IMG/VR virus record: IMGVR_UViG_3300028920_000023
Length of the DNA stretch: 64,000 nt
From: a virus
Lineage: Duplodnaviria; Caudoviricetes
Strand: one strand, 5' to 3'
Shown: piece by piece, positions 1,682 to 64,000 of the stretch
Layout: each line of letters starts with the position of its first letter
How positions within the stretch are numbered: position 1 is the first letter of the stretch
Position numbers and translations under genes: made by a program
Notes under the pieces: model-generated
What the model was told of the DNA's origin: nothing
The model's input: the letters and a program-made list of their open reading frames with translations, nothing else
Databases searched by the model: none

Positions 1682-4495
1682 TTAACTCACAATCTCCATC
1701 TGCCTCAAAGAATACTCATTATAAGATTGCAGCTGATCCCTAACCTCCATAGAACGAATAACAGCCCCAGGGAACATCCTCAAACCCATCTTGCCAGACA
1801 AAGTCTGAATATTAATCGGGAAATAAGGAGTATTCACAGCAACAGGAGAAGTCTGATCAGCAGAAAGCAAAGTATCCGGAGATACTAGCAACCCATTAAA
1901 CCAAATCCAAACCTGATTATCCCTCACCAAAACAGTAACATCATTCCACTTCTCAACCTCACCATTAATCGGAGCAGGAAGCTCACCACCAAAATAACAA
2001 CGAAAAGCCTCAGGACTAGAAGAAACACCAGAACCAACACCATCAACAATAAAACCATTCTGAGAAAACACCTGACTCACAGCACTACCAGGCTGAAAAC
2101 CACGCACCAAATCATCCTCAGAATCCTCATCATTCAAATCATACCGAGTATTCATATCCAAAATACCAACCTGAACCTTCAACTGTACCTGCTCAGAACC
2201 ACTAGACGTATTCTGAGTAAACTGGAAACGCACCGCAGGACACGTAAAATCCTTACGCAACAACTCAACAACAGTTGTATTCGTAGGAACCTCAACAGCC
2301 TCAAGATCAGTAATACCAGTCACGTCAGTGCCACCAGTAGCATCATATGTCGGACAACAAGTACCACCAGTCTGATCCTGGCTAGAATGATCAACAGTAC
2401 AATCAGTCGGACGAACAATCTCATAATCCTCATCAAACGGAAAAACATCATCCCCACCATTAATAAGAACAGCACAATCATCATCCCAATTAGAAAAAGC
2501 CAACTTAAAATCATACTTCCACAGAATATTACGAAAAGCACCCGTCAAAATACGCAAAGTACCACGAGGAGGAAGCTGATTCCAGATCCGCCCCTTCACA
2601 ACCACATACGGAGCACCCGCAAACGGACCAGTCGTATACACACCACGCTGCAAGACCTTCAGATAAGTATCATTGAAACTATCCACCGGAGCATTCAGAA
2701 GAAGATCATATGGAGGATAAGTAAATTCTGTCTCACGAGGTTGACCAATCTTCAAACGAACCAAAGCATTCTTGTGATTCTGACGATGCCACAAGAAAAC
2801 CGGACGATCAGCAACATTCTCAGCAACAAGATCAAACTGCTGACCAAGAATAGACATATCGCGAATATCGACACGACCATCCTTATTAAAATCAGCCGCA
2901 GGATTATAATTACTATCTAAAATCGTAGAACCATAAGCACACAAGAAAATCTTCAAATCCTCATTATCAACAACACCATCACCATTCAAATCCCCAGCCA
3001 AAGAAGGCTCCTGCCTAATAATCCTCAAACCAGGTATACTAGGATCAGAATCGGCAACAATATCATTATTGATAGGTTCACCAGAAGGTTCCCGCCGAAT
3101 AACACCATCAACATCCTGGACCTCACCACCATCGTCCGACAACAATAATCTATCTTCAAAATTAGTTAGGCCCCACTCACCCTCCCTCTCAACCAAACGG
3201 AAATCTGGAACATCAACTTCTGCAGCACTAAGATTTCCCTCGGTATCCGAATTAATCTCATCCCTAGCTTCATATAAATCACCAAACTGAACCATACCAG
3301 ACAGAGCCCAGAGAGACTCAGGATTAAGTTGAGGTTCCTTACTAAAATAAGTCCTGACCGTTCTCTGGTTAGCATCCCTAGTTATCTCAAACTGCCAAAT
3401 ATCAACCAAAGTTCCCAAAGGAAGTATAGAAACAGTAGAATCCAAAACCAAAGTCTTGGGGTTGGCAAGATCCGTCGTAGCATTCTCAGGATTCAAATAC
3501 CTCCAAACATTCGTAGCACTAAACTCATTGCCAACCGGAACAGCATCCTGCACATCCCACAATTTCAACTTATACTGATTATTACTTAACACATTCGGAT
3601 CGACATCCACCACAACCGCCATCTGCTTAGTAATAAGATGGCCATTAGCCAAAATAGAACCAAGCAAACCAGGCTCAGTCTCCGGATGGAACTCATACTT
3701 CAACTGAGCACCGTTCTTATCCTGACCAACAAACCAAACGCACTCAGCCACCCCGGCAGTGCCGGGAGTAAAGGACCAACCAGTCTGGGAAGTAAGATTC
3801 TGATTTCTCTTAAGAACTACCTCAAAACTATTCTCATATGGTGTAACCCTGTTATCGTACCTCTTGAATATTAAAGAAGGAACTATACCCTTCTGATTGA
3901 AGAAATCATCCGGATTAGTTGGATCGAAGATCGTGCTCTCGGGGTATGTGTAGATCTTTAATTCACCATAAGCGCTTACATCTGGCATGATGCCGTTGCA
4001 GCTTGGTGGTCGTACGGATCTAGTCTCGCTCTCATCTTGTATCCAGAATATTCGAGCGCAATCTTCACAATTACAGCTGAGGGGGAGAGGAGAATCGACT
4101 GTAAAGCGGACAGTATTTCCGACTCTTTCGAGACTTATAAATTCGCTACCAGCTGCTAGGATAATATCCCCTACCAGATAACCTCCGTCATCCGCCATTC
4201 CTGCGCCTTGATAGCCAAGTACACCAACCCTGGTCTGGATGGCGGCATCTAATTTGCATTTGTCATCTGCGCTCATCAGCCCAGGTGAGTCACATGTGGC
4301 GTCCGGCACTGGGTCTTCGGATATGTGGGTCGAGCCATGCATGCTGGGTATTGCTACTTGGCTTTCTCTCTGATATAGTGTGTTTGTCTGCTCGTCATAT
4401 TGGAATCCGATGAGCTGCCCGTCTGCTACTGGCACCTGGAAGTATTGGCGGTCTACCAGACTCGAGGGTTCCGGGAGTATTCTGCAGGCTACCAT
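1682..4495 (-). CDS. large putative virion protein with dockerin-like EF-hand pair
   Basis: 937 aa, acidic and beta-rich; GDLNGDGVVDNEDL...ADFNKDGRVDIRDM is a type-I dockerin-like duplicated Ca-binding motif at about 2835-2997; AGGAGA RBS. Confidence 0.75.
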   Translation of the reverse strand: MVACRILPEPSSLVDRQYFQVPVADGQLIGFQYDEQTNTLYQRESQVAIPSMHGSTHISEDPVPDATCDSPGLMSADDKCKLDAAIQTRVGVLGYQGAGMADDGGYLVGDIILAAGSEFISLERVGNTVRFTVDSPLPLSCNCEDCARIFWIQDESETRSVRPPSCNGIMPDVSAYGELKIYTYPESTIFDPTNPDDFFNQKGIVPSLIFKRYDNRVTPYENSFEVVLKRNQNLTSQTGWSFTPGTAGVAECVWFVGQDKNGAQLKYEFHPETEPGLLGSILANGHLITKQMAVVVDVDPNVLSNNQYKLKLWDVQDAVPVGNEFSATNVWRYLNPENATTDLANPKTLVLDSTVSILPLGTLVDIWQFEITRDANQRTVRTYFSKEPQLNPESLWALSGMVQFGDLYEARDEINSDTEGNLSAAEVDVPDFRLVEREGEWGLTNFEDRLLLSDDGGEVQDVDGVIRREPSGEPINNDIVADSDPSIPGLRIIRQEPSLAGDLNGDGVVDNEDLKIFLCAYGSTILDSNYNPAADFNKDGRVDIRDMSILGQQFDLVAENVADRPVFLWHRQNHKNALVRLKIGQPRETEFTYPPYDLLLNAPVDSFNDTYLKVLQRGVYTTGPFAGAPYVVVKGRIWNQLPPRGTLRILTGAFRNILWKYDFKLAFSNWDDDCAVLINGGDDVFPFDEDYEIVRPTDCTVDHSSQDQTGGTCCPTYDATGGTDVTGITDLEAVEVPTNTTVVELLRKDFTCPAVRFQFTQNTSSGSEQVQLKVQVGILDMNTRYDLNDEDSEDDLVRGFQPGSAVSQVFSQNGFIVDGVGSGVSSSPEAFRCYFGGELPAPINGEVEKWNDVTVLVRDNQVWIWFNGLLVSPDTLLSADQTSPVAVNTPYFPINIQTLSGKMGLRMFPGAVIRSMEVRDQLQSYNEYSLRQMEIVS

Positions 4496-4616
4496 TTTAG
4501 TCTCCTATTTTGATTTTACTTATGTTTGAGGTTTCTAAGCCCTAATGTTTTTCTGATGGCTTCTACGGTAATCGAATGTCGATATCGGGATTTCACCACG
4601 ATGTGCACAAATATAA

Positions 4617-7482: not shown

Positions 7483-7621
7483 GAGGAAGGGGATTAGCGC
7501 ATGGACGTGTTGTTTATTCACAATTTGCGATTGTGCGCTCCACCATGGAGCATTTTACGCTTACGCGTAAACTAGGAATCGAACCTAGCAGACTGTAACG
7601 TCGTGCAGTTCCCCAATCCTC
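7483..7621 (-). ncRNA. Y-RNA-like RNA A with circularly permuted tRNA module
   Basis: Minus strand order: terminal stem; T arm CTAGG-TTCGATT-CCTAG; 7-bp TTTACGC-GTAA-GCGTAAA; AT; D arm GCTC-CATGGTG-GAGC; G; CACAA-TCGCAAA-TTGTG; return strand ACGTC-CA-TGCGC-TAA-TCCCC. Confidence 0.75.
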
Positions 7622-8651
7622 AAATAGCAAACTTACTAGCACGGTTCCAAGGAGCATCTTTAGCCCATTTAGCTTTCGTAAACATCGAAGCATAAACAAT
7701 AGACCTAGATTTCCTCAAAACCTGACCATTAAACTGATCATTCTCCAAAGACACAATATCATAACCATTCATTGTGTCCTCAACCTTATCGGAAAACGGG
7801 TCATCTAGCAGTTCCCGGACGATTTCACGAACACGCTTATCCTCTTCTGCCTCTGCCCGTTCAATCTCACGCTCAAGATCTTCCAATGATCCGAGACCGC
7901 GAGATTTCAGAGGAACACGCAAACGAGAAGTCGGGGTACGGCTATTCTTACGAGCAACCTCGATAGACAATGACCCATAACACTCACGAACTAAAGGCCT
8001 CCAAAGCTCTGACCAATATCTAGGATTAGGAGCACGCTCCACGCCAGTAACAGAACCATTGATCAGAATAATCGCCCCAATCTGTTTAGGAACTATCTCA
8101 AACTCCGCAACAAACTGATCCAACTCATCCCTAAATGCACTAAGAAAATTATCCAAATTACCAGTCGCACTAACCTCAAAAGAAGCATTAAAACGAGAAA
8201 TATCATCCCAAAGCTTATAATAAGAACGCTCACCCCGCTTGTTAAACGCAGACTCACGCAAAGAAAAAGGAAGAACCAACATATCATGCTGGCCCTCGGG
8301 GATATAGCCACCTTGCGATTGCTGTATACACATCGCATCATCAAAAGACTTATCGCCCTTACCAACCAAACCAGCCCTGCTCATAGCATGATCCTGGGCA
8401 GCATGTTTCGTAACATACCCAGCATGACACGGAATAAGCAGGACCTTCTCCGGATCAGGATTACGAAACTTCATCTCACCATAATTGTGAGTACTTAAGC
8501 TCGTCTCAACGTCCTTATCCTGAGGAGAAATAATATTCAGATCATACAACTCCTTATCTTTACAAATAAGAGGAATAATCTGCATAACACCAACAGACTG
8601 CAGATTGCCAACCTTCGTACCACGCAGAACCTCACTGATAGTATAATCCAT
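7620..8651 (-). CDS. ARPP-2-like protein (partner of the vWA protein)
   Basis: Real start is probably MDYTISE at 8651, directly after the vWA stop; Q-x-VGVMQIIPL, AAQDHAM and C(I)QQSQGG motifs match my recollection of ARPP-type domains; needs an HMM check. Confidence 0.6.
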   Translation of the reverse strand: MDYTISEVLRGTKVGNLQSVGVMQIIPLICKDKELYDLNIISPQDKDVETSLSTHNYGEMKFRNPDPEKVLLIPCHAGYVTKHAAQDHAMSRAGLVGKGDKSFDDAMCIQQSQGGYIPEGQHDMLVLPFSLRESAFNKRGERSYYKLWDDISRFNASFEVSATGNLDNFLSAFRDELDQFVAEFEIVPKQIGAIILINGSVTGVERAPNPRYWSELWRPLVRECYGSLSIEVARKNSRTPTSRLRVPLKSRGLGSLEDLEREIERAEAEEDKRVREIVRELLDDPFSDKVEDTMNGYDIVSLENDQFNGQVLRKSRSIVYASMFTKAKWAKDAPWNRASKFAI

Positions 8652-8652
8652 G

Positions 8653-10197
8653 CTAGATATCCTCCAACTGAGGCAAAGCGATCCTCGCCAGACCCTCGAT
8701 AGCCTCTTCCAAATTCGTAACAAGAAGAGACTTCAAAACCCGCATGCCAATCCCCTCAGGTTTAGACAACGGAACAGCCTCAACCTCCGGAGCCAAAGTC
8801 CTGAGCGCACCAGCCTTCTCCGCAGCCACCACAGGGGAGACCTGAACCACCGGAGTATTAATCCCCATCTCACGAACAATCTTCAGAACTTCAGAAAATC
8901 TACCCGCAGGAGCATTCTCGTAACCATCAGACAACACATAAACAATCTCAGGATCATACTTCAAAAGAGACACCAAAGCAGACGCCAAAGAGGTCGGACC
9001 ACAGGGAAAAACCAAACCGCCCCTAGGGGCACCACCACAATGGACCACATCAGCAGAAGAACTAGCCTCTTTTAACATATCCCTTACAGCCAAAGAAACA
9101 GCAATCGGACGATTCTTCTGAGTATCATCACCCATCATGGACCTAGAACAATCCACAATAATACCTATGTGACCATGTTTGGAGAACATCGCCTCAGCAG
9201 ATTTCTTTGCTTTCTGCTTTAATGCTGCACGGATCTCGTCTGTCATCCCCATCTCATAAGCGTAGATATAAAGCCTTACGGCATCCAGAGAATGAGGATT
9301 AAACTCGACTTTCACACCAACTTTCTTTGTAGCCTTCTGGACAAGGGCCTTCTGTCGTTTGGTCATCCCACTCTTTGCTAACTCATAAACCACATCCTTG
9401 CCGACGCTAGTATGGAACCTACTTCTTAAGTAAAAGAGTTGCTCTTTGGGCAATCCTTTCCCTTCGGCAAGGTTCTTCTTGGCTTTGATATACTTCTTCA
9501 TAGGATCGGATTTGATCCTGTTCTCAAATCCGAGTATGAAGGCCAGAGGCTCCGTGACGTCGGCGTCTGTATATGGCTCTACGTATTTGGACAGGGTTGT
9601 TTTTTGTTTTTCTGTCCATGCTTTCTTGACGCCTTTTCCGTGTTTCGCTTCCAGGCATTTATACACGGATTTAAAGACGTTCTGGCCCCAGGCATGTTGT
9701 AGGCATTGTCTTATTTTGTAGCGGTATTTGACGCTCCAGTGTTTGAGATTTTTGTTACCTAATAGGCAATTTAGAATGAGTTTCCTAGTTCTAGAATTGT
9801 TGATTCTGTTTTTTCTGAATTCCAGGAACGCTTTGATCATTCTCTGCGGTTCTACGGAACCTGCGAGATGTCTTATTAGTTTGCCTTCTTGCGCCGGAGT
9901 TAGGATTGCTTCCCCACTTCTTGGATTATCAAGGAAGAAACCCATTCCGAGCTGTTTCGAGTAGTCGTTTATCCCAGGCAAGCAGAGACACAGACCGTAA
10001 ATCCCACGGTCGATTGAGAAGATGTCTTTGTGCAGTTGTAATATTGCTTGTTTTTGTTCTTCTCTTGTATTGTAATGTGTTGCTCTGTCCGTTGCTGCAG
10101 CTACGGTATCAAGGAAACTACCCAGGAGCCCTGGCAGTTTTCGTTTCTGCGCTGTACTTAGATGGTCTATTTTGGATATCGCTAGTTCTGTGGTCAT
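8653..10197 (-). CDS. divergent TROVE/Ro60-like helical protein with C-terminal vWA domain
   Basis: MIDAS DCSRS plus VYVLSDGYEN in the C-terminal third; basic alpha-helical N-terminal region (GINDYSKQ, RINNSRTR); probable start MTTEL at 10197 (ORF open to 10281). The vWA call is firm; Ro60 kinship is inferred. Confidence 0.7.
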   Translation of the reverse strand: MTTELAISKIDHLSTAQKRKLPGLLGSFLDTVAAATDRATHYNTREEQKQAILQLHKDIFSIDRGIYGLCLCLPGINDYSKQLGMGFFLDNPRSGEAILTPAQEGKLIRHLAGSVEPQRMIKAFLEFRKNRINNSRTRKLILNCLLGNKNLKHWSVKYRYKIRQCLQHAWGQNVFKSVYKCLEAKHGKGVKKAWTEKQKTTLSKYVEPYTDADVTEPLAFILGFENRIKSDPMKKYIKAKKNLAEGKGLPKEQLFYLRSRFHTSVGKDVVYELAKSGMTKRQKALVQKATKKVGVKVEFNPHSLDAVRLYIYAYEMGMTDEIRAALKQKAKKSAEAMFSKHGHIGIIVDCSRSMMGDDTQKNRPIAVSLAVRDMLKEASSSADVVHCGGAPRGGLVFPCGPTSLASALVSLLKYDPEIVYVLSDGYENAPAGRFSEVLKIVREMGINTPVVQVSPVVAAEKAGALRTLAPEVEAVPLSKPEGIGMRVLKSLLVTNLEEAIEGLARIALPQLEDI

Positions 10198-10291
10198 GAT
10201 CTCGCCCTTTCCAGTGATGAGGCTGTTTATCAGCTTCGTCCTGGTAGTTAAAGTAGATGCGGACCTGATTGGGGTCCGCATCTGATTTAGT

Positions 10292-10404
10292 GGGGGATTT
10301 GCGCAGGGTCAGTTTTCGTCAGAGAGGGAATTGAACCCTCAACTTCGCTTTATAAGAGCGATGTCCTATCCATTGGACTATCTGTAATGACGTGCAGTTC
10401 CCCC
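10292..10404 (-). ncRNA. Y-RNA-like RNA B containing a tRNA cloverleaf (anticodon UAU) with a broken acceptor stem
   Basis: D arm GTCC-AATGGATA-GGAC; anticodon arm TCGCT-CTTATAA-AGCGA; T arm GAGGG-TTCAATT-CCCTC; only 4 acceptor pairs and no CCA; enclosed by GGGGGAACTGCACGTCA / TGACCCTGCGCAAATCCCCC. Confidence 0.8.
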
Positions 10405-10431
10405 GAACTTGCTTTTTTGTTTTGGGATTAG

Positions 10432-10547
10432 TTTGGGGTTGGCGCAAAGTCGTGTTTAAGTGGAGCAGGACTTGAACCTGCGACTTATCGGTTATCAGCC
10501 GATCGCTCTACCATTGAGCTATCCTGTAACGACGTGCAGTCCCCAAA
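10432..10547 (-). ncRNA. Y-RNA-like RNA C containing a tRNA-Ile(GAU)-like cloverleaf with a broken acceptor stem
   Basis: D arm GCTC-AATGGTA-GAGC; anticodon arm ATCGG-CTGATAA-CCGAT; T arm GCAGG-TTCAAGT-CCTGC; 3 acceptor pairs and no CCA; enclosed by TTTGGGGACTGCACGTCGT / ACGACTTTGCGCCAACCCCAAA. Confidence 0.8.
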
Positions 10548-10579
10548 GATCATTTTTCGGTCAGTGCCAAACCAGAAAC

Positions 10580-10608
10580 ATTGTATCACATCCAAACCGC
10601 TTTGTCAA
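10580..10608 (-). promoter_or_regulatory. sigma70-type promoter for the ncRNA/vWA operon
   Basis: TTGACA-17 nt-TACAAT with extended -10 TG, about 30 nt upstream of RNA C. Confidence 0.85.
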
Positions 10609-11090
10609 GTACCCACTGCCATCTTCTTTGTCGTCTTCTTCTTATAAGAACGACGACCCCGTTTCTGCATCTCCTCGCTCTCATATAGAGAACGGGCCAT
10701 ATTTAAAAATTGTCTAGTAACCATCCTAAGAACATTCTCGAACTCTCTAGAATTCAAAGCACAATTATGATAACAAGTATAGGTAACTATCTTCACAACA
10801 ACTGTACCAGGCATAGAAGAATCATTCACAATACCACTAGCTATAATCTCAGCATGAGTCTTATCATAAGTCTCACCACCAAAATAAGGATAATCAAAAA
10901 ACACACCGTCCTCATCCGTATCCCTAATCAACCCATAGAAAATCGCAAACTTCTTCATTTCCGATGGTCTAGACAAGAAATTCAAAGGTGCTTCCATGAT
11001 GCTCTCCCTATTTTCCCGATGAACCAAAACCCGCGACACCCCGCTGATTATAATCGGGGCCAAACTCACACACCTCAACAATATCAACAT
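10605..11090 (-). CDS. hypothetical protein
   Basis: ORF downstream of dUTPase; real start probably MEAPLNF. Confidence 0.55.
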   Translation of the reverse strand: MLILLRCVSLAPIIISGVSRVLVHRENRESIMEAPLNFLSRPSEMKKFAIFYGLIRDTDEDGVFFDYPYFGGETYDKTHAEIIASGIVNDSSMPGTVVVKIVTYTCYHNCALNSREFENVLRMVTRQFLNMARSLYESEEMQKRGRRSYKKKTTKKMAVGT

Positions 11091-11964
11091 TACAATAACG
11101 CTGTATAATGACCTGAGCTATACGATCATGAAAATTGACCTTATAAGGCTTATCCGAAATATTCATAAGAGCAATCATAAGCTCGCCACAATATGTGCTA
11201 TCAATAATACCGTGAAACGGCGTAACCCCCTGGACCCACATAGAAGACCTACCCTCAACAGTAATATAATAACCCTCAGGACAGGAAAGAATAACCCCAG
11301 TATGGATATTCTTAGTACCATGGGGTTCAATTACAACCTCCTCGATAGAATAAACATCATATCCCGCATCCGTAGTCCTCTTACGAGTAGGAACTTTAGC
11401 CTCATCGGATATGGGTTTGCATTCTAAACGAACTGGTGTAAGGTTGTCTTTGAGGTATTCAGTAGAGGATGGAGTGGTGAGGTAGATGTTTCTTGGATTT
11501 ACTTCTAGTTCTGGCTTTATTCTATTTATTGTAATATTATTTGGATCCAGGTATTTTCTAGTATTGTAGCTTCTTCCTCCTTGTAAGTGCCATTGGTATA
11601 ACATATCTTCTGATGTTATTGTTGGCAAATTATGTATTAATAGGTAATTTTCGAATCGTTGTAAGAGATCTTCTGAACATTTTTTGCAACATGCTCCCAA
11701 TCCGTCGTATCTTTCCGGCATTATTATAAACTGGTCTGTTGTCCTATAAATTTTGCACATGTTACACCATTTGACCCTGGATATGCCGTCTGTCTTGTGT
11801 GTAGGGCACCTGTGCAGTTGTCCTATTCTTTTGTATTCTCTCTCAAACTCTTCATCGCAATTTCTACAACGCACTTTGATTTTGTCGTTGGGTTTCGGTA
11901 TTTTGTCTACAATGTGGTTTATTGGTTCAACTGTTCCGACTCTTTCGTTCATCTTCATCTCCAC
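11008..11964 (-). CDS. dut: dUTPase with N-terminal Zn-finger and degenerate HNH-like extension
   Basis: Trimeric dUTPase motifs AGYD, GRSS, GIIDSTYCGE, RIAQ and RGVAGFGSSG in the C-terminal ~140 aa; N-terminal CxxC pairs. Confidence 0.9.
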   Translation of the reverse strand: MEMKMNERVGTVEPINHIVDKIPKPNDKIKVRCRNCDEEFEREYKRIGQLHRCPTHKTDGISRVKWCNMCKIYRTTDQFIIMPERYDGLGACCKKCSEDLLQRFENYLLIHNLPTITSEDMLYQWHLQGGRSYNTRKYLDPNNITINRIKPELEVNPRNIYLTTPSSTEYLKDNLTPVRLECKPISDEAKVPTRKRTTDAGYDVYSIEEVVIEPHGTKNIHTGVILSCPEGYYITVEGRSSMWVQGVTPFHGIIDSTYCGELMIALMNISDKPYKVNFHDRIAQVIIQRYCNVDIVEVCEFGPDYNQRGVAGFGSSGK

Positions 11965-12001
11965 AACTTTATCTCATGTAATAACGAGATATTATAGAAT
12001 T

Positions 12002-13556: not shown

Positions 13557-13588
13557 TGATATCTCCTATTACTCCTGAATATTTTTGA

Positions 13589-14596: not shown

Positions 14597-14623
14597 GATT
14601 TGGCCTCAGGTTAGAACACAGTA

Positions 14624-15656: not shown

Positions 15657-15657
15657 A

Positions 15658-52004: not shown

Positions 52005-52100
52005 CGCAAAATCCCCTGAGTTAAATGGTTATGTAATCCCTGGAAAATACCAGAATTTTCAGAGTAAATTTGATTTTAAAGTAGGCTTGAAATAGTGAGA

Positions 52101-55100: not shown

Positions 55101-55502
55101 CTTGCACAAATATCTGATAATAGGACGAATTTCCCTATCAATCATCAGAGTATTATACAGAAAATCTTCAATTACCTTCTTGACTTTCTTGTTCTTTGCC
55201 TTAACCAACACACTGTGCTTGCGTTCTGGGTCAACAAGACTAGACTCATCTGCATAAATATCCAAAGCTAGAGAAATTTCCCCAGTCTGGTCCATCATAT
55301 CATAATCTTTGTAGCGCTCTAACCTGTTAATCTGTAGGTTGGTCTGTTCCAACAAAGCAGACTGCCTACCTACATTTAATAATTGACCACCCTGAGTGAC
55401 CCTCTCAACATCATCTTGGTCGGAATATAGGTTGTCCACCCGATATAGGTTGGCTTGCTTGAAGTAAGCACGTATCCGATCCCAAAGCTGAAAACTAGGC
55501 AT
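52101..55502 (-). CDS. portal protein, T4 gp20-like, with two inteins
   Basis: LMEDAALIYR(V)TRAPEKRIF, EDDFWMP, IDTLPGAENL..IADIEYF, LKIPFS. Confidence 0.95.
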   Translation of the reverse strand: MPSFQLWDRIRAYFKQANLYRVDNLYSDQDDVERVTQGGQLLNVGRQSALLEQTNLQINRLERYKDYDMMDQTGEISLALDIYADESSLVDPERKHSVLVKAKNKKVKKVIEDFLYNTLMIDREIRPIIRYLCKFGDFAAEIVPTKHRNGVSGYRFMNIYNFTRIHTKYDDLVGFYYQNAVAGEPEFLYPWQVLHMRLTSLENIYEPYGKCCIEGTLVDTPNGQKRIEEIRSGEIVYSFDGMHNVPTRVIDLVDNGYKQTYSIHTSCRRLDLTSNHPVMTYQGNNLVYKQVNELSHGDMIIVPEKDNIVVEGISRIEKRDNKQVFDIGVESNYHNFVANGAVVHNSILDGGRKDYKRLRLMEDAALIYRVCVRGDTRVSTPDGYKHVRDIEVGDTAFCLDRDIEQKPTKIINCVCNGRHKIYRVFSRHREIFTNATHPILVVSPYKKDGVLYHDKLEYVDTQDLKTLENTCAKHYCHRFLLPRIENEELIKLEHPDVPIYARLSEPVNCSIGKDSNTTIKAFLSEHAYIEKDLAESILQEINIKQNLEYMKGWCYNFPQRICRQYNVPLVADEDFAKWFGFMIGDGYVSTRGRIKQVGFALGDDREINEQYKQLFEKIVTEVSFGQDEDYRLGSYYVYSKHLVDFMLINGFIQGAENKRIPSWVYRSPRKIQIAFIDGYLDADGNSRYFKGGITEGHTIECCNEKLVEDFKELIDRMGWSAGLISHRKRDGGHIIDKKTNRTMPDTESWVLYFTKEELPEHERILGVEEIGEDLVYDVTVENDVHNVIYNGIYTHQTRAPEKRIFNIPIGQIPPHQVPQYIQLLARQMKKHRFVDPGTGEINERWNPLIQEDDFWMPKRPDGTGPSIDTLPGAENLDKIADIEYFKKKMVSGLKIPFSRVGIGDPSESDGKSLSSVSPEFAKSVQWIQREVVLGLKKICLVHLALRNHDVSDMREFDLYMTAASAIDELYRIETWNTRSNIMGNLKDLGWFPPEWIIERFTDLTPDEILSLKANSDNALKEPDIKEEDLDEDEKELLNETMKSIYEAQKIQEQTNSEKDYGLSVESFLNKNEFDGIEKGSIGPVSVDTKVIEEAKEDYLLALKRMDDSFVMSQPVTRTIAEGVEEYTSDYATE
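53115..54392 (-). mobile_element. intein, 426 aa, LAGLIDADG; C-terminal His-Gln with Thr+1
   Basis: YRV|CVRGDT...FMIGDG...YLDADG...IYTHQ|TRAPE. Confidence 0.9.
54468..54872 (-). mobile_element. mini-intein, 135 aa, no endonuclease
   Basis: YGK|CCIEGT...FVANGAVVHN|SILD. Confidence 0.9.
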
Positions 55503-55530: not shown

Positions 55531-56826
55531 TTATTTCAATTTAAGGTGAAACTTGGACAAAGGAGGCGTTTTGTACTTTCTATAACCATAAGTACTCACA
55601 AATTCGGACTCAACCATATGAGCAGAACGAGCCTGATTATACAACGTCTTCTTATGCAACTTCCAACCATCCTCATTAACATAGAAATATGAAGGGGCAG
55701 TATAACCATCAAAAACCCAATTCGAGGCCCTATAGATCGTACCAGCATGTCCAGCAGAAGGATCTGAAAAACTAAACAAATAACGAATATTAGAAGGAAC
55801 CAACTTGACACACCTACTTAGAAAATAAGAAGCAAGATTCTTATTCCTAACAAAAGGAACAATAACAAACCTACTCAACTCCATAGCTTCATCCTTCCTG
55901 CAATACGATACATAAACCTCCCTACGGATAGGATGAGAAAAAACAGCACCACAAACCAACTTATCCCCAATATAACCACCAACATAAAAGCCCCTTCTGC
56001 CAAGAGAACCCATATAATGATAATTGCACATCAAATATTGCATTTCATCTTCATTAGCAATTTTAATACTTAAATCTTTAAGATCAATTTTCTCTGACTC
56101 TTTATAAAAACCAACCCACCTCTTCAACAAAGCTTGCATCTTATTAAAATCAAATAACTGATGCTCCCAGACCGTCTTTAACTCATAACCATCGAGCGTA
56201 GAAACATACGAACTCTTAGCCTCATCTTTCCTGGCAACATCGGGTCTGCGGTGCACCCAGTGGCTATTGACTTCTAACAGCAAATCTGTCTCGTCACGAT
56301 GAATAAGGAAATCGAAAGTATATGGACCCAAAACAACTTGATGCTTATACTCAATATTCAGAGAATCAAGAATCTCCTGCATCCTTTTCTCGGTATTTGG
56401 AGTACTAGTGAGTTGCTTCACTAAGGATACAGCGTGAGCTTTTCTATAATTTTCATCCATCCAAGCCTTTTTAGCAGCCTCGGAACACTTCCTCCTGGAC
56501 TCCACATCCCGTACTGACTCAGAGTGTTTACTGCGGTATTTCTCGTCTTTCCATAATTCTTGGGACGATTTCTTTCTCTTATCGACATAATCTTTCTTTT
56601 CCCATATTTTCTTTTGTATCGTGGAGTGTTTCTTTTTTATGTCTGGTTTATTACAGGCACATTTATAACATAACCAGTCAATATTATTGTTTCTTATGCG
56701 TGATTTAACTCTGATGGTTAGGTCTCTGGTCGCATTACAATTATCACATTTGGCTACTATTTTAGGACGTTTTTGGGACAGGTCTACGTTGCCGAATTTT
56801 TGTTTGGTGAGATTCCAGTCGATCAT
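55531..56826 (-). CDS. Zn ribbon plus DUF559/Vsr-like nuclease plus Mom-like acetyltransferase
   Basis: TEKRMQEIL..YTFDFL..LLEVNSHWVH; then NYHYMG, ELSRF, NLASYFLS, SFSDPSAGHAGTIYRASNW. Confidence 0.8.
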   Translation of the reverse strand: MIDWNLTKQKFGNVDLSQKRPKIVAKCDNCNATRDLTIRVKSRIRNNNIDWLCYKCACNKPDIKKKHSTIQKKIWEKKDYVDKRKKSSQELWKDEKYRSKHSESVRDVESRRKCSEAAKKAWMDENYRKAHAVSLVKQLTSTPNTEKRMQEILDSLNIEYKHQVVLGPYTFDFLIHRDETDLLLEVNSHWVHRRPDVARKDEAKSSYVSTLDGYELKTVWEHQLFDFNKMQALLKRWVGFYKESEKIDLKDLSIKIANEDEMQYLMCNYHYMGSLGRRGFYVGGYIGDKLVCGAVFSHPIRREVYVSYCRKDEAMELSRFVIVPFVRNKNLASYFLSRCVKLVPSNIRYLFSFSDPSAGHAGTIYRASNWVFDGYTAPSYFYVNEDGWKLHKKTLYNQARSAHMVESEFVSTYGYRKYKTPPLSKFHLKLK

Positions 56827-59800
56827 CTCATTATGGGTCCGCCGTTATCTAATCGTATGGTTTTGATTTTCTGTGTTATCATGAATCTAGGATCGACCAA
56901 TTTAGAATTAGCTGGCAATCCTCCGAGGGTCATAATATATTCGTTGAATTCTTGTTCTGGGGTCTTATGTTCTGATAGTTCTGGGCATAAAATAACAGGA
57001 GCTAGAGCGTGTATTCCACCAGAATCGTTCAGTTGGCCTATTTGCCGTGCTGCGTCAGGTGGGTCTATTACGTCGTTGTTTAGGCTGGGCACATTGTGCA
57101 CAGGTATTAGTGAGGCGTGATCCGATATCACAGCCTCCGGAAGTCCAACCAGGGACATCCCCAGAGCCATTACGATATCACTGTGATTTCCTGGACCTGG
57201 AACGTGTCCAATTTTATTTCCACCTAGGTGTATAAAGATGTGCAACTGGTCTACGAGTTCTGCGCTGTATACTCTAACTCCATCCTCTACTCCGATGTTG
57301 TCTAATATTGCTTTTACTAGCGTTGGTTTGTGTGCAGGTGAAGTTGGAAAACCGACTTTGGCTGTTCTTTGTCCTTTGGCGGTCTTCATGTGGTAGACGT
57401 TGGAATATCCGAAGTTATTGTAGAATTGCTGGCATACGGGTATCCCGAGTCCTGTTCTTTCTGGGACCACAAAGGCATTGTTGAAGTATCTGGCCAAATA
57501 ATCCATCATACACATTAGGAAATACGGCTGAACTTGCATGTTCAATTCTGCTACTTGTTCACAGTCATTACAGTCGATTACTACTATTGCTGATAGGTCG
57601 TTATCTTCTCCGCTGGAGATATCGACGCCCATACTGTAGGTGTGGCCTGGTGCGCCTGGCCGTATTATTTTGCCTTGTTCTATGAGGTCTGGCTGCGGTT
57701 TGATTGGACGCTTCCAGATTTTGAGTTTACCATCGAAGTCCAGTTCTAGTTCTTCGCTTGTGGTTGGGTGTATATAGGGGACTTTTCCTACTACGAAGTA
57801 TTTCCGTCCCCCGTTGTTATCCAGGTCATCTACTAGGTATAACAGTTGATTTCTTGATAATACTGTGTTTCCGGTTCCTATGAATTCTGCTAGGATTTCT
57901 TGTCTAAAGAGGTGTGCTTCTCCTCTTTGCTGTAGTTGTCTGTATTGTTCTTCTAGCCAGGGTGAGTAGTATGGTCCCCATTTTTCTTTTTCTTCTTTTG
58001 TTCTGCATTTCCGGATTCCGTCTGTGGGGCATATTCTTCTTTTTTGACCTGTTTTTTGATCCTCGAATTCTATGGACCAGTCCATGTCCCACCAATTGAC
58101 TATGATGGGGTTAAAGTCGTTTCTTTTCTTTTCAGCGTCACTCCATGTTACTTCATACCAATTCCCTACTCCGTTACATGTACTAATAACTATCACAGAT
58201 CCACCATGTTGCAGTGTATTATGACTTATAAAACCGTTTGCTATGTAGGTATTGTTTTCGGGCACGCTAAGATCTAGAGTTTTTGCTTTACTTTCTCTTA
58301 TAGACTTAACTTTCATAGGCACTAGGCCATTACTTAGTATTCTACCTAGAGCAGTATCTTTGTTATCATCACAGAGCAGGTCTATTGCTCTGTTATATGG
58401 TATTCTATTATTCCTTTGATAGTATCTGGTTATAGATTTTTTATTTGATTTTCTACAAAATTCTTCAACTGCTTTATGTCGTATTGATAATCCGTGTTCC
58501 TGTTTAGGCGCATCTAGTATTACGTTCTTTCTATCTGATATGAATCCTATTTCGTTTATAAATCTTATATAATTTCTACGATCTATTGTTGATAATCTGT
58601 ATGATTTCTTGCTGTTGGTAAATCCTCCTCTTCCTTCAGATGTTCTAGTTATAATGCCCAATGAGAACAGAGATGATCTCACTTGGTCTATAAGAACCTT
58701 CGATACAGACGAACAAGTAATTCTTTTATTTGATGACGAGCCATCGGCTTCAAAATAACCTCTCAAAAATGCACATATGATTTCTGGGCCACTTGACAAA
58801 ATCGCCTTTGGGATTCTAGCGTGATATACATCTTCCTTAATCAATCCATGCCTAAACATCCAGTCTACAAATGGGGCATTATAGACTTTGATATCAACCG
58901 TATGACACGCATATTCGGTTTTTGGATTTAGTCCGATATTCTTTAGTTTAATTATTAATTTTTCATGTAGCTGTTTGTCTGTAGGACAGCAATGCGGTTT
59001 TATTCTTTTCGGTCTAGAGACGGAGGAACTTCCGTCTCCGATATAATAACCTATAATCTCAGCAAGATCAACGGTCATTATATCTGGCAATTTTTGTGGC
59101 TTATGATGTACACAAGATGGACAAATATATTTTTCTTTCTTCGATTTCCGTAAAGTTATAACCTTGAGAACAAATTTTTTGTAGCACTTATGACATATTA
59201 CCTCAGTATGATCTCTGTTCTTAAGGTTCCCAAGATTAATTAGGTCACATTCCGGCTCTACAAAAACATGTGGCTTTCCTCTACACGTATTTGGCAATAA
59301 GCAAACATAATCATCCTGTTTTAATTCTCTTAATTCTTTCCAGACATATTCTCCTTGTTCGTTAAATATTCTAAGTTTATGGTGTGGTGTTGCTTCAAAT
59401 TCATAACCCAATTCGGTCTCAATATGTAAAGTATTGGTATATCCACTATTGAAGATAGCAGAACATTGCTTATCTCCAGAGTCCGTAGGGAGATCGATAT
59501 CTAGATTCCCAAATTCCCCAATTCCAGTATTGTCATTAAGCATCTCCTTTATCTCTATCAAACCATCGTTTGTAGAGATAATTGAATCGTCAGAAACACA
59601 AGGCCAGCCTGCTGCCCACATCTCATCCATGTGCGGCATAAATCCAGCTTCATCAATAATATTCAAAGATGAAGAATTAGATCTCAGTGTTTCTTTAGAG
59701 GATGTCAGACTACTGATCTGTGATCCATTCGGAAACACGATCTCATGTTCATTGTATGTGGGTGGTGGATCGCCGTAGATCTGATGGAATTCTTTAGGCA

Positions 59801-61127
59801 GGTTATCATAGACGAATTTGATGTTCTTATCTAGGAAGGCTTTGGCGTCTCTGTCTCTTTTTGAGACGATTAAGATGGTTTTATGGGAGAAGAACATTCC
59901 ATTCCATAGGGCATATGCCCCGGATAATGTGCTTATGCCGCAATTATGAACAACGGCTCCATCTACGATATAATTATGAGTTTCTGGAATCGTAAGATCA
60001 TAAACTTCACTTTCTGTATCTACTGGTTTAACAGATTTAATCTGACCCTTAATTCTATTAAATATAAATCCTTTTGTGATTTCTTTTCTTGGTTTTTTGC
60101 CAAATATTCCTATATATTTTGTAAATAATTCAAAATCTCTACCACCTATAATCCTTAATTTAGATATGGTTCCCTTACCAGGATAAATTTTAGAATTTAT
60201 CCCGAATCTACTAAGAAGTTGTTTTAATTGATATAATATTATAACAGATTCCTGAGCTATTCCAGCTTCATTACAATCCTTACCGCTATACCACCCATCT
60301 CCAGAGAACATCCTGTTTATCAAAGTAGCTACTGAGTCATTGTTCCAAGAAAAAACTTCTGCTGGTATTCGTTTTTGCTTGCCTGTTTGTTTGTCTATTC
60401 CAAGAGAACGCAACCATTTTCTAGCTTCAGAATGATTTGTCTGCATCCTATAATTATTGCTATCTGGAGCAAACGAACTAGAATGTGGCCTGATCTTCAG
60501 ACGAACACCAAATTTTAATTCAAAATGCTTCTGGAATTCCAAAAGATATTTCCATCTCTTATTTGTAAAATTAATCCATCTACCATAACATCCGTCCGTG
60601 ATCAAATACCCCAACAAAATGGCATCGGACGTCATCCGGTTATTATAACAGCAGATGTCCGATACCTCTACAAGTACATCGTTTAAAGACAGATCAATTG
60701 CTTTTACCCAACCTTTGCTTGTTAAGAATTGATGATCGCCCGTACATATCGACCTATGGCCAGTTTTAGTCCTAACTTCGTAAAGATTCGTAGAAATTCC
60801 ATTATTATGAACATCAGATACTTTCTGCACATCGAGACGGTTGTCTTTGAGAGTATATACGATATCACCCTTCCTAATTTCTTCGATAGGACAAGGTCCG
60901 TTTGGCGTCCATACCATACTCCCTTTCACGAAGCACTGCCTCGTTTTTCTGTAAACGTTAAATCTGTATTTTTTGAAATCTTCTAAGCTCTTCTTTTGGT
61001 AATCAAATAATCCAAATGGTAAAATACCAGCAACCGGGTGTTTGATCTTACAAAAATTCTCTATAAAATACATTGGGCTTCTCTGGCAACGCCGGAGAAG
61101 ATCGGACATCAACTTTTTTCTATTCAT
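56823..61127 (-). CDS. terminase large subunit with two inteins
   Basis: FDYQ, KTRQ|CGIST (Walker A), IIDEAGF (Walker B), VISTCNG, MGVDISSG..D, VPERTG. Confidence 0.95.
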   Translation of the reverse strand: MNRKKLMSDLLRRCQRSPMYFIENFCKIKHPVAGILPFGLFDYQKKSLEDFKKYRFNVYRKTRQCFVKGSMVWTPNGPCPIEEIRKGDIVYTLKDNRLDVQKVSDVHNNGISTNLYEVRTKTGHRSICTGDHQFLTSKGWVKAIDLSLNDVLVEVSDICCYNNRMTSDAILLGYLITDGCYGRWINFTNKRWKYLLEFQKHFELKFGVRLKIRPHSSSFAPDSNNYRMQTNHSEARKWLRSLGIDKQTGKQKRIPAEVFSWNNDSVATLINRMFSGDGWYSGKDCNEAGIAQESVIILYQLKQLLSRFGINSKIYPGKGTISKLRIIGGRDFELFTKYIGIFGKKPRKEITKGFIFNRIKGQIKSVKPVDTESEVYDLTIPETHNYIVDGAVVHNCGISTLSGAYALWNGMFFSHKTILIVSKRDRDAKAFLDKNIKFVYDNLPKEFHQIYGDPPPTYNEHEIVFPNGSQISSLTSSKETLRSNSSSLNIIDEAGFMPHMDEMWAAGWPCVSDDSIISTNDGLIEIKEMLNDNTGIGEFGNLDIDLPTDSGDKQCSAIFNSGYTNTLHIETELGYEFEATPHHKLRIFNEQGEYVWKELRELKQDDYVCLLPNTCRGKPHVFVEPECDLINLGNLKNRDHTEVICHKCYKKFVLKVITLRKSKKEKYICPSCVHHKPQKLPDIMTVDLAEIIGYYIGDGSSSVSRPKRIKPHCCPTDKQLHEKLIIKLKNIGLNPKTEYACHTVDIKVYNAPFVDWMFRHGLIKEDVYHARIPKAILSSGPEIICAFLRGYFEADGSSSNKRITCSSVSKVLIDQVRSSLFSLGIITRTSEGRGGFTNSKKSYRLSTIDRRNYIRFINEIGFISDRKNVILDAPKQEHGLSIRHKAVEEFCRKSNKKSITRYYQRNNRIPYNRAIDLLCDDNKDTALGRILSNGLVPMKVKSIRESKAKTLDLSVPENNTYIANGFISHNTLQHGGSVIVISTCNGVGNWYEVTWSDAEKKRNDFNPIIVNWWDMDWSIEFEDQKTGQKRRICPTDGIRKCRTKEEKEKWGPYYSPWLEEQYRQLQQRGEAHLFRQEILAEFIGTGNTVLSRNQLLYLVDDLDNNGGRKYFVVGKVPYIHPTTSEELELDFDGKLKIWKRPIKPQPDLIEQGKIIRPGAPGHTYSMGVDISSGEDNDLSAIVVIDCNDCEQVAELNMQVQPYFLMCMMDYLARYFNNAFVVPERTGLGIPVCQQFYNNFGYSNVYHMKTAKGQRTAKVGFPTSPAHKPTLVKAILDNIGVEDGVRVYSAELVDQLHIFIHLGGNKIGHVPGPGNHSDIVMALGMSLVGLPEAVISDHASLIPVHNVPSLNNDVIDPPDAARQIGQLNDSGGIHALAPVILCPELSEHKTPEQEFNEYIMTLGGLPANSKLVDPRFMITQKIKTIRLDNGGPIMR
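58218..59600 (-). mobile_element. intein, 461 aa, LAGLIDADG plus Zn-ribbon insert
   Basis: AGWP|CVSDD...YYIGDG...YFEADG...FISHN|TLQH. Confidence 0.9.
59943..60935 (-). mobile_element. intein, 331 aa, LAGLIDADG, inside Walker A
   Basis: KTRQ|CFVKG...YLITDG...MFSGDG...VVHN|CGIST. Confidence 0.9.
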
Positions 61128-61701
61128 CTTGTTTCTTCGGTTGCGATAGAAGCGCCACTAAATCAAGATCACCAGTAATATGCTCACCCCCCTGTACATT
61201 AACAATCACATCGTTGTTCTTTACAGAAGCCATCAACTTCGCAACCGAGTCCAATGCCCTACTAGCATTAGAATTAATATCAGACTTAACCTGCAATGCC
61301 TTAATATAATTATCAAGTAAAGGAGTCAACCCTTTTTGATCAGAATTCTGTAACTTAGCATTCAATGCACTCTTAATAGTCTGTATAGCCTCTTCCACCT
61401 GGTCTCTATCACTTCTCTGATTATTGATTATCTCGTCTACAGACACGGAGAATTTAGTTAACATCTCTGCCACACCCTGAGAGAATTCTGATTTCTCTGG
61501 TGAAGCATCAATATCTAAAGGAGCTGGAAGCGGCTCGAAGTATGGATCTACTAATTCAGGTTCAGCTACCTGATGCTGTAGCGGCGGTGCTTCTGGTGGT
61601 GGATCTGGACATTCTTCTATTTCTTCTAGTATATCTTGCAATTCATCTGGACTGATACTTCCTTCTTCGAAATCGTCTGGATGCGATTCTTCAGACATCA
61701 C
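61120..61701 (-). CDS. hypothetical protein, candidate terminase small subunit
   Basis: Directly upstream of and overlapping TerL; helical; assignment is positional only. Confidence 0.5.
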   Translation of the reverse strand: MMSEESHPDDFEEGSISPDELQDILEEIEECPDPPPEAPPLQHQVAEPELVDPYFEPLPAPLDIDASPEKSEFSQGVAEMLTKFSVSVDEIINNQRSDRDQVEEAIQTIKSALNAKLQNSDQKGLTPLLDNYIKALQVKSDINSNASRALDSVAKLMASVKNNDVIVNVQGGEHITGDLDLVALLSQPKKQDE

Positions 61702-62272
61702 AAGCTTCTCTGAACTTATGTAGGGTATCTAAATCAAATCTGCATGGTCTTCTATTTCTTGAGACCAGCCACCCTCTATTTATATCCCAGATTGTCTTAT
61801 CTGCTCTGTGGCCACTGCCGTTTTCATAAGATTCTCCTATATCCCTCCATCCGCCCATATTTAGGGCTATGATTCTATTGACAAATTTTTTGAGCGTTTC
61901 TGTGTGTTTGAATCCAGATAAAGATTCTCTGATTTGTGATATGGTCTTGGTGTGGTTGTCACACAGAAATAATATTGCTTCTCTAAGGTTGTCCGCTACG
62001 TCTCGCTGTATTCTGTGTCCGCTTCTGGTTGGGTCTGTATCTGCTGATTTCTTGGGTACTATTCTTGATTTCATATTAATTGTCTTTGGTCTTGCGTTCT
62101 TCATTCTTGTTTTTCTATACATTTTTTCTCTGGCCGATTTTGGTGTACTTTCTGAGAGGGCCTTGTCGATTTGTTTCATGTTATCGTCCAGTTCTTGTCC
62201 TGAGGCCGAGATATAAGACCATAATATATCTTTTAGTAGTTTCTTTTGATCAGTACTCAGGGTCTTGCTCAT
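61691..62272 (-). CDS. hypothetical basic protein
   Basis: 193 aa; overlapping operon. Confidence 0.6.
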   Translation of the reverse strand: MSKTLSTDQKKLLKDILWSYISASGQELDDNMKQIDKALSESTPKSAREKMYRKTRMKNARPKTINMKSRIVPKKSADTDPTRSGHRIQRDVADNLREAILFLCDNHTKTISQIRESLSGFKHTETLKKFVNRIIALNMGGWRDIGESYENGSGHRADKTIWDINRGWLVSRNRRPCRFDLDTLHKFREACDV

Positions 62273-63197: not shown

Positions 63198-64000
63198 CTA
63201 TTTCTGCCTTAGATGTGATAACTTTTGTTGGGTAACCCATCTCGACCACAGTCTTAAGGTTTTCCCTAGAATGCTTATATAAATATTTATTTGTGAGATG
63301 AAAGAATCCAAATACCCTTGCCCAACCTCGTTTGTTCCTACGAACCGACCTACCGACCTTCTGGTCAAACTGAGACCATTGCCCACCACCCCCAATAATA
63401 ACCAAATTCTCCACACCACACTTCAAATCAAAACCACGACCAACAATCTTACTACCAATCAAACACTTCAAATCTCTACGCTCAAACGCCTCAACACACT
63501 CTCGGCGATACTTCTTAGAAGATTTACCATATATAAACACAGAACCAGGAATATGCTCCTGTAGACCAAAACCAAGAGGCTCAATAGGAGAAGTATCAAT
63601 CAAAATAAGCGTACCTTCCTCTCCAAACTGCAGAGGAATAGTAGCAACCAAAGAATGAAAATCATCATTATCAACAATATCTTCCTTCAAAGCAATATCA
63701 TAAGCACGACCATCACGCCTATCCCCATCCTCGATAGCAATGAAAAACATCCTAATAGGAATAATCCGCCCAGCCGCCTGAACCTCCTCCCTACTCGTCT
63801 CCGAAATAATACTACCCATATGCTCCTTCAAAATCAAATTCTTAACAGGCTTAGAACGCTCATAAGGAGTTGCACTAAAACCAAACTTTCTACGCCCCTT
63901 AAAATACCTCTTAAACAACTTAGCATACTGCTTAGTCGTAGCCAAATCCACCTCATCGACCAATAACAAATCACATTTCGATACCATCCCCTGTATTTCT
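63151..64000 (-). CDS. SF2 helicase, UvsW-like (5' part beyond window)
   Basis: LVDEVD, FGFSATP, GRGFD, QKVGRSVR; frame open to the window edge. Confidence 0.88.
   Translation of the reverse strand, partial: EIQGMVSKCDLLLVDEVDLATTKQYAKLFKRYFKGRRKFGFSATPYERSKPVKNLILKEHMGSIISETSREEVQAAGRIIPIRMFFIAIEDGDRRDGRAYDIALKEDIVDNDDFHSLVATIPLQFGEEGTLILIDTSPIEPLGFGLQEHIPGSVFIYGKSSKKYRRECVEAFERRDLKCLIGSKIVGRGFDLKCGVENLVIIGGGGQWSQFDQKVGRSVRRNKRGWARVFGFFHLTNKYLYKHSRENLKTVVEMGYPTKVITSKAEIDGKKFIKSRYKIPKK

Follow-up and report, generated by a model that had tools for sequence, protein, structure and literature searches.

How do the two strands of a virus genome come to differ so strongly in base composition, with the sense of the difference changing within kilobases and inside genes? 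The question is raised by a 64,000-base stretch (the window) of the tailed-virus record IMGVR_UViG_3300028920_000023, in which an earlier note, made from the letters alone, had described a mosaic of A+C-rich and G+T-rich blocks. The window is bases 15626-79625 of the 102,485-base IMG/VR record, whose completeness is estimated at 28%; an identical copy of the capsid protein sits on a 354,787-base contig, and the genome is roughly 355 kb. To judge from its gp23-family capsid protein, T4-type portal and prohead protease, the source is an uncultured giant T4-like phage, and the runs containing it are marine sediment metagenomes. We find that the mosaic follows the DNA strand whichever way the genes are read, and we tentatively take it for the footprint of an ongoing DNA-strand-asymmetric substitution process, acting in place.

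Strand skew across the window

Keto skew, (G+T-A-C)/N, was calculated in 1-kb windows, and likewise at third codon positions (keto3), on which a three-state hidden Markov model (HMM) defined the patches; its states are a convenience. Gene calls were checked with Pfam and with a frame score using codon positions 1 and 2 alone, because stop codons are rare on the A/C-rich strand. Across the window the 1-kb skew ranges from -0.46 to +0.23, with a standard deviation of 0.149 as against a mean of 0.031 and a maximum of 0.039 in 200 shuffles. The coding-strand skew of single genes at third positions extends from +0.94 (24576-25442, 97% G/T-ending) to -0.81 (26692-27201). The HMM patches measure 0.15-3.7 kb, with 110 state changes in 102 kb; discrete states, or bistability, were rejected, as the values of 40-codon windows are spread flat and unbroken between -0.9 and +0.1, tailing off to +0.9.

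All of the A/C-rich and G/T-rich intervals listed in the earlier note were recovered by the HMM and the 1-kb profile. On the + strand, A/C-rich patches lie at 1621-3836 (keto3 -0.80; the 3′ two thirds of a 937-aa gene, ending abruptly at the stop codon); at 8336-9163, over the 3′ end of the 542-aa gene 8653-10281, whose 5′ part is weakly G/T-rich on +; at 42265-44603; and from 63337 past the end of the window at 64000, inside the helicase-like gene 63151-64866. The strongest block, 23921-28731 (HMM patches 23921-27583 and 27817-28731), is unbroken across three gene-orientation changes: within it the - strand gene 24576-25442 has its G/T-ending codons and the + strand gene 26692-27201 is about 90% A/C-ending. 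In the interrupted block 29681-33307, likewise, the codons of the + strand gene 30769-31299 end in A/C and those of the - strand genes on either side in G/T, and further A/C-rich patches at 35745-38313 overlie small genes whose calls are uncertain. The + strand is G/T-rich at 12996-14630, a domain containing the - strand genes 12573-13556 and 13892-14596, which are A/C-ending (keto3 -0.40 and -0.77) and both validated as - strand coding; at 11407-11713; at 57249-58056; briefly at 61862-62069, inside the - strand gene 61691-62272; and weakly at 9.4-10.3 kb (+0.20 in the 1-kb profile). Between these domains, 14633-23918 is a neutral 9.3-kb block (G+C 0.35-0.36) holding a bacterial-type sugar-modification cassette.

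Switches fall within genes, as had been claimed for the 937-aa gene, dut, the protease with its intein and the terminase-like gene; the label vWA given to 8653-10281 found no support, as Pfam returned no match. In the dut gene (11008-11964, -) an A/C-rich patch at 11023-11404 coincides with the dUTPase domain (residues 188-317) and abuts the G/T-rich patch 11407-11713 covering the 187-aa N-terminal extension, so that the switch falls exactly at the domain start. The extension, of no assigned family, has the opposite silent-site bias and still scores as - strand coding. As to the 937-aa protein (1682-4495), it carries a type I dockerin at residues 500-553 and is 60% identical to a protein with neutral silent sites in a related record, G001.

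At fourfold-degenerate sites of validated genes (by Pfam or coding potential), counted on the coding strand, + strand genes in A/C blocks have A.56, C.31, G.07 and T.06, and - strand genes there have T.78, G.13, A.04 and C.04; - strand genes in G/T blocks have A.44 and C.37, and + strand genes in the G/T block T.49 and G.24. The two skewed states are thereby reverse complements of one another independent of gene strand, which bears out the observation in the earlier note that minus-strand genes use G/T-ending codons in A/C blocks and A/C-ending codons in G/T blocks, and that + strand genes within A/C blocks are themselves A/C-rich. All four strand-by-state combinations are represented by validated genes: on the + strand, glycosyltransferases and two small genes are A/C-ending, and glycosyl- and pyruvyl-transferases G/T-ending; on the - strand many genes are G/T-ending, and 12573-13556, 13892-14596 and the C-extein of the terminase-like gene A/C-ending. 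Neighbouring genes on opposite strands correlate at r=+0.51 when scored on the + strand and at r=-0.74 when scored on the coding strand, and intergenic skew tracks its flanks (r=0.73). Coding strand together with amino-acid content, which the earlier note had named as one explanation that would refute it, thus fails to account for the skew. The same bias can mislead gene callers: five + strand open reading frames (ORFs) of 97-224 codons in A/C-rich DNA (27572-27919, 36493-36828, 37197-37490, 38895-39236 and 39240-39914) score as non-coding, with the - frame scoring as coding, and are probably spurious, since skewing leaves few stop codons on the A/C-rich strand.

The changes are concentrated where selection is weakest. 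In gene 24576-25442 the apparent fraction of sites converted, by our own calculation, is about 0.94 at codon position 3, 0.42 at position 1 and 0.18 at position 2 (against neutral baselines of about 0, +0.05 and -0.08), and first and second positions pooled hardly shift at all. Amino-acid usage changes modestly in skewed DNA (Val 8.0 vs 4.4%, Thr 4.4 vs 6.9%); the product of 42256-43926, picked out earlier for its unusual content, has V 10.8, G 8.8, F 7.4 and C 3.6%. Skew lying mostly at third positions is the mark of evolution filtered by selection, not of an artefact of the reads.

Gene orientation nevertheless leaves a trace, and the claim that the mosaic ignores it holds for the DNA strand and needs qualifying for gene starts and ends. 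Of the 110 state changes, 69 are over 100 bp away from the nearest gene edge; near gene ends there is a mild excess of patch edges (33% within 60 bp vs 19% expected), and the sharpest steps into A/C-rich + strand DNA are at the 3′ ends of - strand genes. The last third of - strand genes is more G/T-ending than the first (mean +0.22; 40 up vs 17 down, p=0.0003), and the first 60 or so codons dip toward neutral in every gene, even one translationally coupled to the gene upstream, a dip that we read as ordinary selection at gene starts. Coupled genes share their state (r=0.59, n=27), whereas continuity breaks down where the gap holds a strong hairpin (r=-0.22, n=14). By eye, the sharp edges share no common motif; junctions from A/C to G/T and from G/T to A/C, at 6-7 cases, are too few for their spacing to be compared.

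Three genes of the head and packaging region, all on the - strand, are interrupted by four inteins: one in the prohead protease, one in the portal (LAGLIDADG) and two in a terminase-large-subunit-like gene (the second LAGLIDADG). In the protease (47188-48996) the exteins stand at about +0.5 and the intein halves at -0.07 and +0.64; in the T4-type portal (52101-55502) the exteins are at +0.38 and +0.50 and the intein (about 53132-54827) at +0.10; in the terminase-like gene (56823-61127) both inteins are near neutral, and the C-extein (56826-58250, including the + strand G/T patch 57249-58056) is A/C-ending, at -0.39. Near-neutral DNA includes three of the four inteins, half of the fourth and the 9.3-kb sugar cassette. 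The major capsid gene (gp23 family, 44902-46440, -) is neutral in its 5′ half and G/T-ending in its 3′ half (45010-45763), which adjoins three downstream - strand genes (40134-44653) with PHROG matches to endonuclease, endonuclease VII and HNH families. These look like free-standing homing endonuclease genes by their PHROG matches, an assignment that Pfam and PDB sequence searches did not confirm; two of the three also have helix-turn-helix domains. The two nearest the capsid gene, with keto3 of +0.65 and +0.72, are among the most skewed of the window, and the third is at +0.34. G001 has the same arrangement, with one endonuclease-like gene in the same place (51752-53257).

Relatives and known strand asymmetries

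Searches of IMG/VR, JGI metagenomes and a 5.8-billion-protein set found relatives with at most 83% capsid identity, the phage itself excepted; a phage collection gave no near DNA match, a best capsid match of 41% (an uncultured 595-kb record) and no cultured relative. The nearest DNA relative is 76% identical. Two relatives were compared as whole records, G001 (234 kb, 89% complete) and G005, and the standard deviation of skew falls from 0.151 in this phage (extreme) to 0.089 in G001 (moderately patchy) and 0.053 in G005 (not patchy). Heterogeneity is clearly raised in 19 of 74 capsid-gene loci of at least 12 kb in relatives, about a quarter of them and more weakly than here, and is not in 45. 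The capsid gene is neutral, A/C-ending or G/T-ending depending on lineage, and orthologues of the post-capsid genes are G/T-ending in many lineages; post-capsid genes occur in 74% and 58% of patchy loci vs 18% of plain ones, a comparison confounded by relatedness. The proposition that conserved regions are the skewed ones gave contradictory answers, true for the capsid gene and false for a 998-aa gene, and was dropped.

Fourfold sites are saturated between relatives, observed matches being about as many as expected by chance. Despite this, aligned 40-codon bins of this phage and G001 correlate in skew (r=0.27, p=2e-5; for G005 r=0.13, not significant), and in pairs of relatives with about 80% DNA identity the local skew is the same while substitutions go equally both ways, so that the bias is maintained and not merely inherited. 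Among pairs at 80-91% DNA identity no patch was caught forming. Mirror-image patches, by contrast, are confined to this phage. Its 953-aa sheath-like gene is A/C-ending over codons of about 60-330 and G/T-ending over about 450-930, in this phage only, the protein being about 69% identical to orthologues with neutral silent sites; the A/C-ending state of the terminase-like C-extein recurs in 0 of 36 relative rows (some of them near-identical records). The recoding of these stretches thus occurred in this lineage.

Beneath the patches there is a polarity of whole genomes. Coding keto3 in three whole records is +0.21 to +0.29 for genes sharing the sense strand of the capsid gene and -0.04 to -0.14 for the rest; by our own estimate about 0.12-0.22 of this belongs to the DNA strand and a small part, about +0.07, to the coding strand; in G001, which has equal numbers of long genes on each strand, there is no reversal along 234 kb. 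The earlier note had imagined many fixed local polarities of replication or repair. A DNA-strand property is indeed present, and its direction is as if one strand gains G and T; fixity finds no support, as the patch map agrees only weakly with that of G001 (r=0.27) and, the mirror patches being missing from every relative examined, no conserved site fixes the polarity. In our reading a genome-wide polarity underlies the patches, in place of many fixed local ones.

A strand asymmetry of comparable size exists in vertebrate mitochondrial DNA, whose heavy and light strands differ, on the usual explanation, through C>T and A>G changes on the strand left single during replication. As there, a G+T-rich strand faces an A+C-rich one at fourfold sites whatever the gene orientation, and G makes up about 0.05-0.09 of these sites on the A/C-rich strand. 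The gradient of mitochondrial DNA is smooth and its polarity single, whereas 110 state changes, neutral stretches and mirror patches crowd 102 kb here; in the three phages a genome-wide component is present, overlaid by neutral and inverted patches. The strand-coordinated mutation clusters that form on single-stranded DNA at breaks and in break-induced replication (kataegis) consist of kilobase tracts in which all changes are on one strand, with polarity set by the single-stranded or newly made strand, and they serve us as no more than a working analogy; they are single events with enzyme-specific context, whereas the tracts here are saturated, filtered by selection and free of neighbour-base context. 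The bacterial leading strand is also G+T-rich (PMC3269016, PMC5291525), and shares with the phage the direction of bias and a component independent of gene orientation. Bacterial skew is far weaker, with origin and terminus its only points of reversal; in the phage third positions go up to 97% and flips occur on a kilobase scale.

The closest parallel lies in GRINS, genetic repeats with intense skews in their nucleotides (Nivina 2021, PMC8256042), defined by mean absolute GC and TA skews above 0.15 and by a region of more than 500 bp over 80% identical to another of the same cluster or genome, and within which GC and TA skews correlate at r of about 0.70, as against 0.09 outside (PMC8256042). 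Over the whole 64 kb, in 150-nt windows, mean |GC skew| is 0.238 and mean |TA skew| 0.195, and the two correlate at r=0.42 with neutral stretches included (0.006 in shuffles). Common to both are intense, positively correlated GC and TA skews (G+T vs C+A), strongest at third positions; abrupt sign flips within 1 kb inside functional genes; and an amino-acid shift, with Gly, Val and Cys raised in G/T-rich parts and Thr, Gln, Pro and His in A/C-rich parts. Duplication is what is missing: self-BLAST of the 102-kb record, a part of the roughly 355-kb genome, found no repeat of at least 80% identity, its matches being a 61-bp internal repeat in skewed DNA and a tandem array of 65-69% identity at the contig start. 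The patches are single-copy, take in about half of a virus genome where GRINS occupy a few modules of a gene cluster, overlie a genome-wide polarity and, in an A+T-rich genome, are dominated by T and A over G and C. The compositional signature is that of GRINS without the repeats. The authors of that study themselves noted skewed regions present in one copy, as well as certain GRINS lying in phage and endonuclease genes, and left the mechanism not established (PMC8256042); our literature search found no paper on such skews in phage genomes. This phage separates skew from sequence duplication, and offers natural controls in its inteins, its imported cassette and the orthologues that are neutral elsewhere.

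Possible origins of the mosaic

The ongoing strand-asymmetric process that we tentatively favour would drive the unconstrained sites of one strand toward T and G, and those of the other toward A and C, with purifying selection keeping first and second codon positions nearly fixed. It would have two layers: a clade-wide polarity, in which the G/T-rich strand is the sense strand of the capsid and other structural genes; and, in this lineage, a strong amplification, which varies from place to place along the DNA and in a few stretches has its sign inverted. The asymmetry may be linked to recombination-dependent replication, or to the repair of breaks and gaps, in T4-like phages, where one strand might be made or exposed unlike its partner; the source could be single strands, newly made or displaced, or a polymerase that tends to form G-T mispairs. 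Recent arrivals, such as the inteins and the bacterial-type sugar cassette, would not yet have acquired the bias. Should the cause be a strand-specific step of this kind, the patch map would show where, and in which direction, that step acts.

As to the chemistry, there is no dependence on neighbouring bases: whichever base lies 5′ or 3′, T/(T+C) stays at 0.85-0.92 and G/(G+A) at 0.70-0.84 in G/T-ending DNA. This argues against a motif-specific deaminase, and sets the pattern apart from enzymatic hypermutation of the APOBEC/AID-like or DddA-like kind, which does depend on neighbours. The earlier suggestion of modification-driven mutagenesis gains no support either: a Mom-family protein (55531-56826) and an adenosine-deaminase-family gene are present, but the bias is free of neighbour effects and the presence of such genes could not be tied to it. 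A family A polymerase was also considered and rejected as the cause, its presence not following skew (absent in the skewed G001, present in the unskewed G005).

Several observations weigh against the process that we favour. Pyrimidines make up 61% of the G/T-rich strand vs 50% in neutral DNA; the drift of single-stranded DNA toward G+T by deamination, invoked in the earlier note, therefore fits in direction and falls short as an explanation, since the two deamination-type transitions are insufficient and transversions or a fixation bias must contribute. A gene of the uracil-DNA glycosylase family at L164 5489-5905 (G000 84988-85404), a family found in all five records searched (the phage and four relatives), should limit C-to-U damage. 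Intergenic DNA is less skewed than fourfold sites, which pure mutation bias does not predict unless such DNA is constrained or quick to turn over, and the second half of the protease intein is strongly skewed (+0.64). With no relative above 83% capsid identity, substitutions are unpolarised and mutation bias is indistinguishable from biased fixation; the recombination link rests on T4 biology and on the association of GRINS with gene conversion; and the mirror-image patches demand a local reversal that lies outside this account.

A different possibility, which we think unlikely, is that there is no local process at all: a uniform strand bias would act on the whole genome of the lineage, or of different donor lineages, and the patches would be segments brought in by homologous or illegitimate recombination, the neutral ones from unbiased relatives and the mirror ones from relatives with the segment the other way round. 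The genome-wide polarity exists, most relatives are nearly unskewed and could supply neutral DNA, and the inteins and bacterial-type cassette are neutral. G+C content is itself a mosaic (from 0.33 to 0.59 over the record), dut switches at a domain boundary, and both the enrichment of edges at gene ends and the loss of continuity across hairpin gaps are what one would see at module joints. Yet no donor was found, the nearest DNA relative being only 76% identical, and the closest capsid relatives are neutral exactly where this phage is skewed. G/T-ending and A/C-ending alleles differ at most third positions, and are too distant for homologous exchange within genes; no relative has the mirror state of the terminase-like C-extein or of the 953-aa gene; the 5′-to-3′ rise in - strand genes (40 up vs 17 down) would not be expected of random imports; and the intensities form a continuum.

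Rather doubtful, too, is a bias of fixation in place of mutation, whereby G/T-rich single strands would be favoured in recombination between co-infecting genomes and conversion would recode the transferred strand, reinforcing itself locally. This could arise either because the recombinase prefers G/T-rich DNA, or because a nuclease destroys G-T but not A-C heteroduplexes; a weaker variant would be selection for structure-free or palindrome-free DNA. GRINS skews are linked with gene conversion (PMC8256042), and a passage of one study describes RecA as preferring to bind TGG-type repeats (PMC3763553). By our own calculation, a single keto weight of about 6 on neutral fourfold composition predicts T.55, G.31, A.09 and C.06, close to the values in G/T-ending DNA (T.51-.64, G.21-.35), and so covers the pyrimidine gain that transitions alone miss. 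The weaker skew of intergenic DNA, which is less alignable between genomes, and the strong skew of the endonuclease-like genes and of their flank in the capsid gene also agree with it, as do NucS-domain genes in two skewed relatives (G002 and G003). Against it, NucS is absent from the 89%-complete, skewed G001, and a Pfam scan of the 102-kb record found no NucS, HNH, GIY-YIG or endonuclease VII domain, an absence of little weight in a 28% fragment of the genome; strong patches occur also in genes without a detectable homologue in the two whole related records; and local skew is not bimodal, although self-reinforcement might predict that it should be. The same fragment gave no HNH_3 or reverse transcriptase domain.

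From this comes a broader and speculative proposal, of which we are doubtful: that giant T4-like phages carry a genome-wide GRINS process, a recombination-linked, strand-specific recoding drive that would change the silent sites, and some amino acids, of single-copy genes inside a single lineage. The drive would lie in a preference for fixing G and T on whichever strand is transferred or newly synthesised when replication depends on recombination, or in repair of the homing type. If that is true, GRINS would come about as a general side effect of intense gene conversion, instead of being a property that belongs to repeats.

Transcription is a less probable cause still. The exposed non-template strand of heavily transcribed units (in bubbles or R-loops) would drift to G+T, the patches would be transcription units, and genes embedded in the opposite orientation would lie under dominant antisense read-through. 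G/T-ending codons do outnumber A/C-ending ones by 3.4 to 1 in skewed DNA; the small coding-strand component estimated above (about +0.07) and the continuity of state across coupled genes, lost at strong-hairpin gaps, agree; and some patches stop at stop codons, with a strong hairpin after some of those stops. However, the G+T-rich coding strand that such asymmetry should produce is not what is seen, for there are validated A/C-rich coding strands on both DNA strands, including the terminase-like C-extein and, as whole genes, the GT9 and GT1 glycosyltransferases, 12573-13556 and 13892-14596. Of the long genes of G001 about half are encoded opposite to the capsid gene, and these are neutral to A/C-ending instead of G/T-ending; one gene contains both states; and skew climbs toward 3′ ends when it should be greatest near promoters. 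The signals themselves were uninformative: the T4 late-promoter word TATAAATA was not enriched (5 sites vs 5.2 expected), a generic promoter scan was at chance level, and a terminator scan gave 26 sites vs 15.8 expected, unrelated to patch edges.

Two-letter-rich sequence does look like converted DNA, and its ORFs would stay open in any case as stop codons grow rare on the A/C-rich strand, but a chimeric assembly, or strand-specific base-calling or chemical conversion errors, are extremely improbable, given that the effect is far greater at third than at first and second codon positions, that the proteins retain 50-84% identity to relatives, that the pattern is present in independent metagenomes, and that the sequence itself is reproduced. 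Independent assemblies of three sediment runs, one of them on a sample that carried no flag as possible source, reproduce 9000-28999 (20 kb) with zero differences and no variant letters in their contigs, at 17-28x word depth. Contigs span most patch edges, including 9163 and 23921, and extend 25 bases beyond the flip at 11405; the X3 contigs leave gaps, one of them right beside that flip, and X1 has a single low-support joint, from 14701 to 17612, with 21 letters on its shorter side. As contigs bridge most of them, the patch edges are not assembly joins, an explanation that the earlier note had allowed for.

Consequences and neighbouring genes

Whatever its cause, the bias has practical effects. 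It yields long spurious ORFs on the A/C-rich strand, distorts host prediction from codon usage and shifts protein composition, and the saturation of silent sites misleads phylogeny and gene calling in such genomes. Most small genes of the skewed blocks have no match in PHROGs or Pfam. The gene 7620-8723 encodes an ARPP-1/ARPP-2 domain protein and 38940-39542 a protein with an RNA ligase 1-like segment. The genes of the neutral sugar cassette (14624-23375) encode a cupin/lyxose-isomerase-like protein, a PfkB kinase, a cytidylyltransferase-HAD fusion, a sulfotransferase, a DegT aminotransferase and methyltransferases.

The mosaic of G+C content is visible at 37487-37816, 38500-40000, 45000-47000 and 49000-51000. 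At third codon positions G+C reaches 0.77 in one small ORF, and is 0.60 in the capsid gene beside genes at 0.24-0.27. The contig start (L163 340-1840) has a G+C of 0.59 and there, inside a 394-aa ORF, lies the degenerate tandem array, with its 65-69% identity between offsets.

Four tRNA genes are found on the - strand, at 10316-10387 and 10457-10528 (one for Ile, with anticodon TAT, and one detected by Rfam only) and at 29402-29477 and 29517-29592 (both Met, CAT). Upstream of the window (L163 1964-11925), the adenosine-deaminase-family gene (Pfam E=7e-42) adjoins a GDP-mannose 4,6-dehydratase gene, after which a + strand operon of glycosyl-, pyruvyl- and sulfo-transferases passes from A/C-rich to G/T-rich silent sites along 7.6 kb.

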